The position numbers were made by a program, and so were the translations under genes. DNA of 64,000 bases. Origin: a virus. The notes beneath the pieces were generated by a model. That model was not told where the DNA came from and did no database searches. It was given only the letters and a program-made list of their open reading frames with translations. Shown here one piece after another: positions 32,606-36,797 of this stretch. Where the stretch lies: positions 1 through 64,000 of IMG/VR virus record IMGVR_UViG_3300030331_006142, one strand, 5' to 3'. Every line of letters begins with the position of its first letter. The first letter of the stretch is position 1.

Positions 32606-33520
32606 TTAAAGGGAGTCTCTAGTTTTAAGCACCTCTTCTCTACTTCCAGCTTTATAAAAGCCCGCGGGGGCTTTAGTTATCTCCTCAAAGCGTGGCACAT
32701 GTTGGCCTTTTGGTAAACCTGTCTTATTAATTATTATAATTTTATCTAAATGTACCTCTCCAATCATTGCAACTTCTGCGTAGTCTGATACTGCATCAAC
32801 ATGCTTAGTATCCTCAGCTATTTTGGTAATTTGTATTCCCGGATTAGAGCCTCCAGCTCTTGTTACATATAAAACCTCTATTTGACCTGCTCCTTGTCCC
32901 TTCGTCCCATGCTGAGCATAATATGAAGCTTCATTGAATTCTGTCGACCATGATGAGGTCTTTTTGGTGCCGCCGCGTGGGACAAACTTAGACGGCGGCT
33001 TAATTACATGAACTCCAGGACCTTTTTGAAGCAAAAAATCTATAGGCAACGAGGGAAACAATTCTTTAAGCTTTTTGGCCGAAACGTGCATTCCTCTGAA
33101 TACTTTCCCGCGAGCCTTATATTTAGGCATATGTTTTGTTATTAAAGCTGCTGACCGGGAACTCATCGGTATATTAGACCTTATGTGTCTTCTTAGTTCT
33201 ATAGCCAAAGTGTCCATTTGTTTATTAATCGATTTGAGACTAGATAGCGTCGCGCGAGCAAAATTAGCCTTGCCGGTAACTCTTCCAGCTTTGCTAGATT
33301 TAGACAGCCTTGCGGCCCTGTTAGCGTGCCTGGCTACAACCAAAGGGCCTCCGAAAAGCTCAAGGCCGCTGCTAGGTATGTTTGGGTCGGAATCAACAAG
33401 GCTAAGCCATATTTTTTTATACCACGGAGCTTTGCGCCAGCGTCGGCTTCTGGCTAAGGTCTCAGCGCTCAGGCTCTCAACTTGTAAAAATCTACGCCAA
33501 TTTTCCATTATAAGCTTCAT
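32606..33520 (-). CDS. Putative ADP-ribosyltransferase-like protein with MKLIMENW leader
   Basis: VFRG...SSWST...YAEV pattern resembling R-S-E ARTs; start moved to MKLIMENWRRFLQ. Confidence 0.5.
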   Translation of the reverse strand: MKLIMENWRRFLQVESLSAETLARSRRWRKAPWYKKIWLSLVDSDPNIPSSGLELFGGPLVVARHANRAARLSKSSKAGRVTGKANFARATLSSLKSINKQMDTLAIELRRHIRSNIPMSSRSAALITKHMPKYKARGKVFRGMHVSAKKLKELFPSLPIDFLLQKGPGVHVIKPPSKFVPRGGTKKTSSWSTEFNEASYYAQHGTKGQGAGQIEVLYVTRAGGSNPGIQITKIAEDTKHVDAVSDYAEVAMIGEVHLDKIIIINKTGLPKGQHVPRFEEITKAPAGFYKAGSREEVLKTRDSL

Positions 33521-33524
33521 AACC

Positions 33525-34073
33525 CTACATATTTCCTTGGTACATACCCAACCGGGCAGTTGTACTGGTGCGCCTTTTTCTCTTTGCGAGTCTGAGCTGC
33601 TTTCTCGCATCGAAAAATTTTCGATGACCCACATGGATTTTTTCTTTCGAGCGCACTTTTATTTTTCCGTCTTTAGAGTCATAAATAATTGAAAAAACAC
33701 CATCTGGGTCTTTATACATTACACTCGTTTTTAATTTCTTATCTCCCTTGCAATTACTATATTTAGAATTTTTCCCACTGTCATACGCGGTTGGCGAGCA
33801 GGGAACACATGTGCGCGTTATATTGCAGCGTTTTCCAGGTGGACACCACTTTTCATTATCAAACTCCCCTACTTGAGGGCCGCATTCTGGGGTTTTATAT
33901 CCTCTCGCTGCACAGGGCGATGCCTTTCCATATACTGGTTCTGTTTGTGTCATAACGCTGATTCCCGCTTTCTTGCAGGCATCTATTTGACCTTGGTCTA
34001 ACCTAGGGTCAAGCATAGGATGCTTTTCTTCTTCTTTTAAGAATTTTCTCCAGTTTTCCATTATAAGTTTCAT
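33525..34073 (-). CDS. Cys-rich protein with MKLIMENW leader
   Basis: 182 aa, begins MKLIMENWRKFLKEE. Confidence 0.7.
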   Translation of the reverse strand: MKLIMENWRKFLKEEEKHPMLDPRLDQGQIDACKKAGISVMTQTEPVYGKASPCAARGYKTPECGPQVGEFDNEKWCPPGKRCNITRTCVPCSPTAYDSGKNSKYSNCKGDKKLKTSVMYKDPDGVFSIIYDSKDGKIKVRSKEKIHVGHRKFFDARKQLRLAKRKRRTSTTARLGMYQGNM

Positions 34074-34327
34074 TTTTTAATAACACTTATTGCTCGTTTA
34101 ACTGTACTAATTAAATGTTTACGAGATATGCCAATCGGTTGTCCGGCACCTTTCGGGGTTAAAATATCTATAATATCATTAAATATTTTACTAGCATCGG
34201 CAGAATTAATCTTACCGGAGGCCTCTTTTTTTATTATTCTTATAAGTTCCGTGCCTACATTTTTACTTGAGATGTAATCTTGCTGTTCTGTTAAGAACGG
34301 CTTCCAATTTTCCATTATAAGTTTCAT
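34070..34327 (-). CDS. Small protein with MKLIMENW leader
   Basis: AAGGAG RBS then MKLIMENWKPFLTEQ. Confidence 0.7.
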   Translation of the reverse strand: MKLIMENWKPFLTEQQDYISSKNVGTELIRIIKKEASGKINSADASKIFNDIIDILTPKGAGQPIGISRKHLISTVKRAISVIKK

Positions 34328-34345
34328 TGTATAAATCTCCTTATA

Positions 34346-34392
34346 ATAAATAGCCTTTAAGATAAGAAAAGTTGAAAGGAATGTCGGACTGT
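34346..34392 (-). repeat. Degenerate copy D of tmRNA-3'-end/late-promoter element
   Basis: ...TTTCAACTTTTCTTATCTTAAAGGCTATTTAT; the 3' half matches the other copies. Confidence 0.65.
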
Positions 34393-35048
34393 TATTTTTG
34401 TCCAATAGAATTTAATAATTCTGAATCTAGGTTCATCCAGTTTAGGCTCGTTGAAGTAAAGAAGTTTTCTATTCTGTCTGGTTTAACAGCCCAGCTTGAA
34501 TCTGGATGCCAATCTTCAACAAGTGAACAAGGGGCAATTTTTAAATTTGCCACTATATACATTGAATTCTCATCTAATCCTACGCTAATGTTACCTGCCT
34601 TAAGGGCACGGCGAGACTCTGTGTGAAGAAAGACCTTGAAAGCATTTACGCCATAGGTTGCTACGATTTGGGTTATTTTGTCTTCTTTTTTTGGATTCTT
34701 TTTAATTAAGGCTTCATAGGATGCGAATCCGTTATCCAGAACTCCGGTAGTAGTAAGTCCATTGTTTTTTAAAAAATTAAATCTTATATCTTTTTTACTA
34801 CCACCAAATGAAACTGAATGGAGTACACTTTTAACATCATTGCTTACATGCGTCCCCTGATTGGGCGTTTTTACAAATGTGCAATTATATTTTTTTTGCA
34901 TTGCAATCGATGCAGACCTCACACTTTTTTTGCATGAATCTAAGAAATTCGAGGCGATGGCCATCGTCAACTGGACATCCTCAGGGTCTCTCTTAGTGAA
35001 CTCCACTTCGTTTACAAATTCTCGCCAGTTTTCCATTATAAGCTTCAT
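34392..35048 (-). CDS. Hypothetical protein with MKLIMENW leader
   Basis: 218 aa, begins MKLIMENWREFVNE. Confidence 0.7.
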   Translation of the reverse strand: MKLIMENWREFVNEVEFTKRDPEDVQLTMAIASNFLDSCKKSVRSASIAMQKKYNCTFVKTPNQGTHVSNDVKSVLHSVSFGGSKKDIRFNFLKNNGLTTTGVLDNGFASYEALIKKNPKKEDKITQIVATYGVNAFKVFLHTESRRALKAGNISVGLDENSMYIVANLKIAPCSLVEDWHPDSSWAVKPDRIENFFTSTSLNWMNLDSELLNSIGQK

Positions 35049-35585: not shown

Positions 35586-35605
35586 AATAAAATTTCCTTA
35601 TAGTA

Positions 35606-35652
35606 ATAAGTAGTCTGCAAAATAAGAAAAGTTGGTGGGAGTGACGGAAGTC
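35606..35652 (-). repeat. Copy B of tmRNA-3'-end/late-promoter element
   Basis: GACTTCCGTCACTCCCACCAACTTTTCTTATTTTGCAGACTACTTAT, 41/47 identical to 36460-36506 by manual alignment. Confidence 0.9.
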
Positions 35653-36031
35653 AATTATTCTTCTTCTTGTAATCTTCAATAGCAGATTTTATGGCACCCT
35701 CTGCTAACACTGAGCAGTGAATTTTTACAGGGGGCAGTGCTAAGTGAGTTGCGATATCCTTATTTTTTATTTCTTTGGCTTCCTCAAGTGTTCTACCTTT
35801 TATCCATTCAGTTATCAAGGATGATGATGCTATGGCAGAACCACAGCCGTATGTTTTGAATTTTGCATCTTCAATTATACCATCATTATTTACTTTAATT
35901 TGAAGCTTCATAACATCCCCACAAGCTGGGGCCCCAACAATGCCTGTTCCTACCGAGTCGTCATTATTATCTAGAGACCCTACGTTTCTAGGGTTTTCAA
36001 AGTGGTCTATTACTTTTTTTGAATATGTCAT
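35651..36031 (-). CDS. iscU: Fe-S cluster scaffold IscU
   Basis: YSKKVIDHFENPRNVG, GAPACGDVM, KTYGCGSAIASSS and LPPVKIHCS motifs. Confidence 0.95.
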   Translation of the reverse strand: MTYSKKVIDHFENPRNVGSLDNNDDSVGTGIVGAPACGDVMKLQIKVNNDGIIEDAKFKTYGCGSAIASSSLITEWIKGRTLEEAKEIKNKDIATHLALPPVKIHCSVLAEGAIKSAIEDYKKKNN

Positions 36032-36456
36032 GATTTTTTTTCAAATTTATTTTTATCTTGCCATTTATGAGACTCTTTGTCAATTTTTATTGGGCCGCCT
36101 TTGGCCCAGGTGTGGCAAGAACGCGCGGAGTGGCATTTAAAATGATGCATCCAACAATATCCAAGTTGACCATCTTTATCAAAAGTATCTCCGGGTAGGC
36201 ACTCCTTCATTCTTGGTGATATATCAAAAGCTACACAATTGCCACAGTTAGACTTCTTAGCAGCTTTTTCACTAGTTTTCCAATACTTACCTATCTTTTT
36301 CCAATAATCTCCAGGTTCATCTACGTTTAACGGTCCATAGTTGTACTCTTTTATTGTTGCATCTCTGTTTTTGGTGTTGAGGGCAAGGTCTTTTGTGGCA
36401 GGAGGACATATATAATCTTTTATAGATTTAACTATTCTTATTATTATTCTGCGCAT
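36028..36456 (-). CDS. Cys-rich conserved phage protein (CGNC...GYC...C...C.TW), possibly metal/Fe-S binding
   Basis: Start MRRIIIRIV at 36456; the listed longer ORF runs into the tmRNA. Confidence 0.7.
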   Translation of the reverse strand: MRRIIIRIVKSIKDYICPPATKDLALNTKNRDATIKEYNYGPLNVDEPGDYWKKIGKYWKTSEKAAKKSNCGNCVAFDISPRMKECLPGDTFDKDGQLGYCWMHHFKCHSARSCHTWAKGGPIKIDKESHKWQDKNKFEKKS

Positions 36457-36486
36457 GTTATAAGTAGTCCTCAAAATAAGAAAAGT

Positions 36487-36797
36487 TGGTGGAGGTGGCG
36501 GGAGTCGAACCCGCGTCCAGAACATCTCAAATAATACGTCGTTCACAAGGTTAGTCTTGTTCTAGCACAAGACAGCTATTAAGTAGCAAATATATAGTTA
36601 TATAAATTAACAAATCCAGATGTTCGGTTAAGAAGGTATCTGGAAAACCTCCTCAAGAATTATGCGGCAAGCGCAAAATCCTCGAAATTTTCAACGTCAT
36701 CGTTTGCGTTTATAGTTTTGAGTGTTTTTACTGTGACCTCACTCACACAGCCTTGCACGTATTATTATCCTTACCCTGTCGAAACCTGGTCACCCCC
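36487..36797 (-). ncRNA. ssrA: tmRNA, tag peptide ANDDVENFEDFALAA* (36660-36707)
   Basis: 5' GGGGGTGACCAGGTTTCGAC pairs with 3' CACCTCCACCA, including the G3.U wobble; T-arm GCGGGTTCGACTCCCGC; tag ORF ends ALAA-stop. Confidence 0.95.

Follow-up and report, generated by a model that had tools for sequence, protein, structure and literature searches.

The subject of this analysis is a 64,000-nucleotide stretch of viral DNA (the window; positions 1 to 64,000 of IMG/VR virus record IMGVR_UViG_3300030331_006142), in which a transfer-messenger RNA (tmRNA) gene is followed by an array of small genes separated by serial copies of the tmRNA 3' end. We consider it probable that this array is a hyperplastic region whose cargo is shuffled by homologous recombination between composite direct repeats, much like the promoter-early stem-loop (PeSL) repeats of T4-type phages, and that an N-terminal leader, MKLIMENW, acts like a T4 capsid-targeting sequence. 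Exchange between homologous direct repeats of ~50-90 bp would add, remove, replace, and rearrange the small, mostly orphan cargo genes. Each repeat is a three-part intergenic module made of the last ~20 nt of the tmRNA plus ACTTTTCT, a promoter-like spacer and, often, the DNA of the 14-residue leader. We infer the recombination mechanism, the class of promoter, and the packaging and cleavage of the cargo from comparisons of sequence. The window is part of a 130,653-bp record with a CheckV completeness of 72%, which comes from an uncultured marine T4-like phage; we call it T4-like because it has a match to Gp23, the T4 major capsid protein, and a RecA/UvsX-type gene (found in 5/5 tested records, this one among them), and because its relatives encode a T4-type prohead protease (Peptidase_S77, in 5/5 relatives). 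The Gp23 match lies at the very end of the record, which stops inside gp23 and is thereby cut off from its head-gene neighborhood.

A repeat search of the window revealed one four-copy family of 50-nt direct repeats (Table 1), with 86, 100, 80, and 70% identity to the reference copy for copies 1 to 4, respectively. Every feature of the array is on the minus strand; in the coding direction the repeat consists of the last ~20 nt of the tmRNA, from the ACTC of the T-loop to the CCA, followed by ACTTTTCTTATTTTG-N3-ACTAYTTAW. With up to 6 mismatches allowed, for which we estimated by hand a chance expectation of ~0.003 per record, the 27-nt spacer occurs at four sites in the whole record, all within the array, and the 20-mer of the tmRNA end at up to 5 mismatches also occurs at four, three of them in the array and one, with 5 mismatches, at 84793 on the plus strand. 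A second family in the window comprises five copies of the first ~44 nt of the five MKLIMENW genes; the 24-nt leader at up to 4 mismatches has five sites in the record, none outside 33497-35576. Copies 2, 3, and 4 abut or overlap the stop codons at 35651-35653, 35100-35102, and 34392-34394, respectively, and the genes that follow the four copies start at 36456, 35585 (or 35576), 35048, and 34327, which is 4-20 nt after the repeat. A preliminary description, made from the letters of the window, had reported four serial copies of the tmRNA end plus spacer with the one at 34346-34392 the most decayed, each beginning at or near a stop codon and ending shortly before the next start, unrelated cargo between them, and five MKLIMENW leaders, and in all of these respects it was borne out.

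Table 1. Features of the array and of its neighborhood, in window coordinates.
Feature	Position	Strand	Details
tRNA-Met	28319-28395	-	ARAGORN
Cassette 4 gene 3, 304-aa ORF with MKLIMENW leader	32606-33520	-	ORF list, leader scan
Cassette 4 gene 2, 182-aa Cys-rich ORF with MKLIMENW leader	33525-34073	-	Start overlaps prior stop (ATGA); no preceding repeat copy
Cassette 4 gene 1, 85-aa ORF with MKLIMENW leader	34070-34327	-	ORF list, leader scan
Repeat copy 4	34343-34392	-	tmRNA part decayed (~8/19 positions match, hand count); spacer kept, 5/27 mismatches
Cassette 3, 218-aa ORF with MKLIMENW leader	34392-35048	-	No Pfam/PHROG match
Repeat copy 3	35050-35099	-	tmRNA-end mismatches 1/20, spacer 4/27; ATG 4 nt past ACTATTTAA motif
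Cassette 2, 161-aa ORF starting MSEMKLIMENW	35100-35585	-	No Pfam/PHROG match
Repeat copy 2	35603-35652	-	tmRNA-end mismatches 4/20, spacer 2/27; starts inside iscU stop codon
Cassette 1 gene 2, iscU (IscU/NifU-like Fe-S scaffold)	35651-36031	-	Pfam NifU_N 9.5e-54; PHROG 8429
Cassette 1 gene 1, Cys-rich 142-aa ORF, no MKLIMENW leader	36028-36456	-	ORF list; no Pfam/PHROG match
Repeat copy 1	36457-36506	-	True tmRNA 3' end (36487-36506) + 27-nt spacer ending ACTACTTAT; next ATG 4 nt on
Phage one-piece tmRNA	36487-36797	-	ARAGORN; tag ANDDVENFEDFALAA; repeated segment derives from its last ~20 nt
159-aa gene just upstream of tmRNA	36798-37277	-	Starts with second conserved leader MPKFYRQNKKRRNPRYFLNE, also ending F-L-x-E
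ORF, open reading frame.

To describe the repeat beyond the window, we assembled a set of 33 distinct copies, drawn from ten relatives as well as the window and comprising 9 true tmRNA ends and 24 extra copies; the pattern used allows up to 4 mismatches, so that decayed copies such as copy 4 are missed and the set is biased toward conserved ones. Within the extra copies a 15-nt core has 0, 1, 2, and 3 mismatches in 14, 4, 3, and 3 cases, respectively. All collected copies have the same left edge, the ACTC of the T-loop, immediately to the left of which column conservation falls sharply. In 18/24 extra copies the stop of an upstream ORF (50 codons or longer) lies no more than 12 nt from the core. 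By our own reading, leader genes come next after about 15 of the 24, and the others precede genes such as iscA, iscU, or a lipoprotein-like ORF. The four 61-nt repeat regions of the window fold no better than shuffled sequences (z of 0.31, -1.25, 0.01, and -0.64) and contain no hairpin or inverted repeat. An anti-Shine-Dalgarno-like hairpin, with CUCC pairing to a GGAG inside the repeat, was rejected because the folds are no better than those of shuffled sequence and the window copies do not preserve the GGAG. One copy in the array of relative G001 (locus L084) has a more PeSL-like look, owing to an inserted hairpin of ~50 nt that separates its acceptor-strand part from a second CCACCAACTTTT part.

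Megablast with window positions 30000-40000 found no close relative among named phages, the only match being to the tmRNA 3' end (window 36487-36525), which is 97% identical over 39 nt to an unannotated stretch of Alcaligenes phage vB_Af_QDWS595 that could represent a tmRNA fragment of att type there. A distant-mode search with a 48-nt leader query returned nothing significant (best E 0.9), and a related-locus search using the 509-aa protein encoded just downstream of the array returned zero relatives. In IMG/VR the exact leader DNA pattern was present in 75 stretches, and a 24-mer spanning the tmRNA end and spacer in 12 stretches on 11 contigs. We compared the window with five relatives (G001-G005; 175-193 kb, four of them at least 96% complete and G001 100% by CheckV), giving six loci oriented on the tmRNA strand; L084 belongs to G001 and L086 to G003, and L083, L085, L087, and L048 are further loci of relatives. 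The flanks are conserved in all six loci, with a ~1000-aa protein (1047 aa in the phage studied here) upstream and a PP-loop ATPase gene and tRNA-Met downstream, and the distance from tmRNA to tRNA-Met ranges from 1.9 to 8.1 kb. Repeat copies with 0-2 mismatches number 5, 4, 2, 1, and 3 at the loci of G001 to G005, respectively, and such matches are restricted to one locus per relative genome apart from a single 2-mismatch match in G001. Each MKLIMENW protein of the six loci is a singleton (blastp, 1e-5). The preliminary description had set this comparison in advance as a test, and the outcome agreed with it: cassette number and content vary, breakpoints fall in the repeat, and the full repeat is not scattered genome-wide.

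Two pairs of loci locate the breakpoints. The window and L085 have one common block of 1185 nt with 89.3% identity (window 35628-36802), running from the tmRNA start through the Cys-rich and iscU genes; the homology stops ~5 nt into the spacer of copy 2, and the cassettes beyond are unrelated. L086 and L083 are 99.3-99.5% identical over 9.5 kb, and, between two repeats, L083 carries two leader genes, of 128 and 94 aa, as a unit that L086 lacks. In its place L086 has a single chimeric repeat, which in its left part (tmRNA core plus ACTTTTCT) equals the left repeat of L083 and in its right part (spacer, box, and leader start) the right repeat, with the switch lying within CTTTTCT. This topology, a cassette between two PeSLs versus one chimeric PeSL, is that set out for PeSL deletion or insertion in passages of Arbiol et al. 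(2010; PMC2839356), where homologous recombination is the mechanism proposed. The first gene after the tmRNA is also replaced in the L086/L083 pair, being a 219-aa gene with the leader in L086 and a 184-aa Cys-rich gene without it in L083. Gene order varies as well. The tmRNA is followed by the Cys-rich gene and iscU in the window; by the same two genes and then an extra iscA cassette between two repeat copies in L085; by iscA, iscU, and the Cys-rich gene, with no further copies, in L087; and by two leader genes and then iscU in L048. Homologues of the 142-aa Cys-rich protein occur in the same region of L085 and L087. As a separate observation, an iron-sulfur gene set (iscU, iscA, and the conserved Cys-rich gene) stands beside the phage tmRNA in the window (35651-36456), L085, L087, and L048, in differing orders. 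Population data came from assembled Logan contigs, in which those of X7 and X8 cover the array in the order of the window with 0-1 differences and one 2001-nt contig spans copies 3 and 4. Three joints listed in sequencing runs, two of them long-range (sides of 26 and 34 nt, 90% likeness), were read as relatives or repeats, not as deletions or circles.

The tmRNA itself has the tRNA-like domain and tag reading frame that define its class (by ARAGORN in the window and by Rfam RF00023 in the relatives). RF00023 matched a homologue in 4/5 relatives, with 124-128 bits in G002, G004, and G005. The G003 tmRNA (G003:C1:80966-81419; about 4967-5420 of L086) is 454 nt long, scores 96.7 bits, has an altered T-loop, and is missed by ARAGORN; it may carry an insertion or be decaying. 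Neither RF00023 nor ARAGORN found a tmRNA in G001, though at least five copies of the tmRNA-end element are present there, and in G005 one element copy lies 6.3 kb upstream of the tmRNA. Recombination between such an upstream copy and the tmRNA's own 3' end would delete the body of the tmRNA and offers a simple route to the state of G001. A variant tmRNA end without an encoded CCA, in which the acceptor strand is followed by AAAT and then a small hairpin, was seen in L083 (~90-170) and on the minus strand of L084 (oriented ~6089 and ~8114). Because the copies share their left edge at the ACTC of the T-loop, one founding duplication is suggested; the tmRNA-derived part would most likely have arisen by that event just downstream of the tmRNA, and then have spread and been kept uniform by recombination, acting mainly as homology and not as an integrase site.

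The leader has the 14-residue consensus MKLIMENW(R/K)(R/K)(F/Y)(L/V/I)xE. Its positions 9-14 lay outside every search pattern, and in 100 distinct leader ORFs they read [RKN][RKQ][FY][LVI]xE with mixed synonymous codons; the retention of these residues under synonymous codon variation shows selection on the peptide. Positions 12-14 are [LIVMF]xE in 69/100 ORFs, and I-M-E stands at positions 4-6 in nearly all; the protein bodies behind this short conserved N-terminus are unrelated. Matches of 87 leader proteins fall in just 11 Pfam families with 1-2 members each (e.g. GNAT, amidase, GDSL lipase, PAP2, and TMEM65). The T4-type protease was found in 14/20 further leader-bearing contigs, including 5/5 of those at least 90% complete, and the prohead proteases begin with MKLIREYY, MKLLREYF, or close variants, resembling the leader. 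A PF03420 protease search of the window's own record was uninformative because the record ends in gp23 and the control matched nowhere. Passages of the T4 literature state that gp21 cuts after L/I-X-E, that capsid-targeting sequences are propeptides of 10-20 residues (PMC9026906, PMC5694885), and that this propeptide is the sole common part of the T4 internal proteins (PMC3012670, PMC9026906, PMC5694885). We read the leader as a capsid-targeting propeptide because of its I/L-x-E motifs, the presence of a T4-type protease in relatives, and the likeness of the protease N-termini, and by this analogy it most likely works as the T4 capsid-targeting sequence does. The leader would bring its cargo into the prohead core, where the T4-type prohead protease would cut after (I/L)-x-E, and the cargo would be injected with the DNA; virion loading of the leader proteins has indirect support only. 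Our literature search found "MKLIMENW" in no paper.

All four window copies contain a T4-late-like box, CTAYTTAW, with no -35 element. A T4 late promoter, as described, consists solely of a TATA-type box of 8 bp and lacks a -35 element (PMC2988020), which makes a late-type promoter a fair guess and the spacer a plausible candidate for one. A CTA[CTA]TTA[AT] box lies within 50 nt upstream of 42/96 distinct leader genes, compared with 1/96 for its reverse complement; the box accompanies the tmRNA-like core at each of the 16 sites that have one, and it is found upstream of the scaffold gene in G001 and G002 too. The spacer as a proven promoter was rejected since the genome-wide count of ACTAYTTAW is about that expected by chance. 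The late promoter of the preliminary description stays a plausible candidate. Neither a sigma-70-type site inside the four window copies nor a minus-strand terminator-like site in 32400-37400 was found. In relatives, a consensus sigma-70 promoter sometimes takes the place of the late-like box after the tmRNA part plus ACTTTTC, matching 12/12 positions in L048 (5177-5205) and 11/12 after the true tmRNA of L087 (12402-12430, minus strand); because the tmRNA part is joined to two types of promoter, it and the promoter part assort independently. In 22 cases the ATG follows the end of the box by 3-5 nt, and in the window repeats the box lies 3-20 nt before the start; a box or -10 element so near the ATG would imply leaderless or near-leaderless mRNAs. 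Leaderless mRNAs seem likely at the sigma-70 sites that follow tmRNA-end copies. The sigma-70 -10 box lies 6 nt from the ATG of iscU or iscA in L048 and L087, and a perfect TTGACA-17-TATAAT precedes a 90-aa gene at ~6090-6130 of L086 (L086/L083 pair). Metatranscriptome run X20 contains contigs identical or nearly so to 32400-32670 and 33937-34089, which indicate presence in an RNA library, where carry-over of DNA is possible and neither starts nor strand are shown.

Several findings weigh against homologous shuffling of capsid-targeted cargo as a full account. No recombination event was seen directly, and two joints in contigs probably come from relatives. The prohead protease of the window's own record cannot be checked, since the record stops inside gp23; two leader proteins match membrane-protein families (TMEM65 and PAP2), which is odd for capsid cargo; and ACTAYTTAW is not enriched genome-wide, with 9 sites in the 130-kb record against ~10 expected by chance (hand estimate). 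The near-perfect 15-nt core is hard to call neutral, and it is kept although the flanking genes are just 65-73% identical and although G001 has copies without a tmRNA; frequent gene conversion would explain this conservation, as would, equally, a function of its own. Two independent breakpoints (window/L085 and L086/L083) fall right at the CCA/ACTTTTCT boundary, which a preferred crossover site would fit, and such a site would fit equally the joining of the tmRNA part to two different promoter types. Finally, shuffling between repeats gives no account of how a new gene first lands with its stop flush on the repeat.

Foremost among the alternatives is that the tmRNA segment is a functional cis element that each gene needs, whether as a signal for RNA 3'-end processing or stability borrowed from tmRNA maturation, as a binding site for a protein, or as an upstream promoter element, and that recombination is a by-product. 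Such an element would account for the absence of mismatches in 14/24 cores and the single mismatch in four more, whereas the 24-copy set is skewed to conserved copies, and in the window copy 2 has 4/20 mismatches and copy 4 is largely decayed with the spacers of both kept. The segment always stands exactly at the end of the upstream gene, its copies persist in G001 without a tmRNA, and together with ACTTTTCT it behaves as a module of its own, joined to a late-like or a consensus sigma-70 promoter; yet it has no predicted structure of its own (z -1.25 to 0.31), and the leader genes at 33525-34073 and 32606-33520 lack any copy. Weighing these points, we regard a needed cis element as an unlikely explanation, if one to be taken seriously.

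A more speculative proposal treats ACTTTTCT and the 20 nt of the tmRNA end as a genuine site of cassette capture, which would make the array an "integron without an integrase". An unrecognized nuclease or recombinase, or a property of the sequence during T4-type recombination-dependent replication, would here direct crossovers to the CCA boundary, and a shared pool of capsid-tagged injected effectors would be plugged in behind early or late promoters. We hold this to be doubtful.

The 3' ends of tRNA and tmRNA genes are classic integration sites, and the preliminary description accordingly took the array for an integron-like hotspot with copies produced by integration. In an att system of this kind a site-specific recombinase or homing-type nuclease, from the phage, a co-infecting element, or the host, would insert cassettes and duplicate the tmRNA end each time. 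The sharp and constant left edge in the T-loop, the two breakpoints at the CCA boundary, upstream stops flush with the repeat as for cassette ORFs with attC in integrons, and the 39-nt tmRNA-end match at 97% in the genome of Alcaligenes phage vB_Af_QDWS595 are what such a system might leave. The enzymes were sought in the window's record and the five relatives, four of which are at least 96% complete: tyrosine recombinases (PF00589) were found in 0/6 records, with the control matching in 14/14 genomes, and serine recombinases (PF00239) in 0/6, other recombinase and nuclease families not having been searched. The earlier remark that no integrase is visible in the window accordingly extends to the whole record for both recombinase classes. 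The repeat has no inverted repeat or hairpin, the promoter-like motifs belong to the cassettes themselves, one copy in G005 lies 6.3 kb upstream of the tmRNA, G001 has copies without a tmRNA, and the chimeric repeat of L086 needs homologous exchange alone. Integration at the tmRNA 3' end as the source of the copies is thus not supported by the two recombinase families covered or by the form of the repeat, and of the earlier proposal the hotspot of gene gain, loss, and swap remains while its integron-like mechanism does not. In our reading the array is not an integron or a series of integrase-mediated insertions, and the wider att-type reading seems improbable to us.

Least credible, and very improbable, is a purely local history in which one unit of repeat plus leader gene was duplicated in tandem and the bodies diverged fast with no exchange between genomes: it would suit five adjacent leader genes with starts alike over up to 44 nt and a single common left edge, but the bodies are unrelated in sequence and length (85-304 aa here and up to 468 aa in relatives) and belong to different Pfam families, a protein found elsewhere (P0004) joins the 304-aa body to another N-terminus, whole cassettes and one replacement separate near-identical genomes, and the same iscU and Cys-rich genes occur in different orders among relatives.

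Repeat-mediated shuffling, the reading we prefer, has its nearest parallel in the PeSL system. In the published accounts (PMC2839356, PMC4122927; Comeau et al. 2014), PeSLs likewise belong to T4-type phages, are composite intergenic repeats reaching from the upstream stop to the downstream start, and accompany mostly orphan genes in a variable region between conserved blocks. The present repeat differs in being built from a tmRNA 3' end, in having no stem-loop terminator (no stable fold and no terminator-like site), in showing a late-like box alone, without a sigma-70 promoter, in the four window copies, and in a homology that often runs into a conserved protein-coding leader. We therefore read the tmRNA-end-derived repeat, by analogy, as a new junction for PeSL-like shuffling. 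In the literature on PeSLs, capsid-targeting sequences, and pelagimyophages or tmRNA, we found no account of tmRNA-end repeats bounding cassettes, the supplements of the PeSL papers lying outside that search.

The cargo is comparable to the T4 internal proteins IPI, IPII, IPIII, and Alt, a set of otherwise unrelated proteins that likewise begin with a short conserved stretch, there a propeptide; a prohead protease of the T4 type is present in the phage group, (I/L)-x-E stands where the T4 protease cuts, and one cargo protein is possibly ADP-ribosyltransferase-like, as Alt is. The leader here has a different and longer sequence, and there are more cargo genes, with at least 87 distinct bodies, some of which match membrane-protein families. 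Integrons (intI, attI, and attC) resemble the array in their short, unrelated single-gene cassettes with ORFs ending at the repeat and in their varying number and content, and differ in having an adjacent IntI tyrosine recombinase, attC sites that form hairpins, and cassettes that lack promoters and depend on a shared one, where we find direct repeats and cassettes with their own promoter-like motifs. Islands and prophages at tRNA or tmRNA 3' ends are likewise bounded by direct repeats of the tmRNA 3' end from the T-loop, whereas the units here, at 0.3-1.5 kb, have neither an integrase gene nor any other gene for mobility, they sit in a T4-like phage genome of lytic type, and one relative has copies upstream of its tmRNA while another has copies and lacks a tmRNA.

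Six of the seven array genes have no Pfam or PHROG match. The preliminary description was right that the cargo between copies is unrelated (the Cys-rich gene plus iscU, then one, one, and three ORFs); the ADP-ribosyltransferase-like identity that it gave to one gene is a weak lead, the 304-aa protein having weak structural neighbors of that type in the Atlas (template-modeling scores, TM, of 0.36-0.46). An ADP-ribosyltransferase fold could not be read from the AlphaFold2 model of this protein, which was unusable (mean predicted local distance difference test score 44.9). Four homologues were found, one of which (P0004) has the same body with a different N-terminus.

Upstream of the tmRNA, the 159-aa gene has paralogues with the same start in L085 and L086. 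They belong to a second portable N-terminal leader, MPKFY(R/G)QNKKR..PRYFL(N/E)E, found on proteins of 99-479 aa beside the tmRNA, with tandem copies in relatives (window 36798-37277, minus strand; L085 4770-5069 and 5110-5544; L086 823-2262 and 3009-3338); ending in F-L-x-E, it may be a second tag of the capsid-targeting type. On the other side of the array, the 509-aa protein (window 30979-32508, minus strand) has weak PHROG matches to peptidase and baseplate-hub families over residues 297-455, and its start, MINLREFVKIVKKW, faintly resembles the leader. Outside the window, near G000:C1 81924 on the minus strand, an 838-aa ORF begins with MSNFYSKWKQYLQE, resembling the second half of the leader, and has ACTATTTAT 23 nt upstream.

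T4-type repeat-mediated shuffling has been described mainly in coliphages and vibriophages, with cassettes of a sigma-70 promoter and a stem-loop, and the lineage studied here is marine. On present sequence evidence, what we see looks like the same shuffling logic in an abundant, uncultured marine T4-like lineage, with the junction recycled from a tmRNA gene and linked to a 14-residue leader that is portable and heads at least 87 unrelated proteins. The array also offers a plausible path by which phages may lose their tmRNA, through recombination with an upstream copy. Were the doubtful cassette-capture proposal true, marine T4-like phages would draw capsid-tagged, injected effector genes from a shared pool. 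Should the leader prove to be a capsid-targeting tag, sequence alone would suffice to pick out candidate injected proteins, perhaps anti-defense or host-takeover factors, in marine viromes, and the array would be a defined place in which to watch their turnover.

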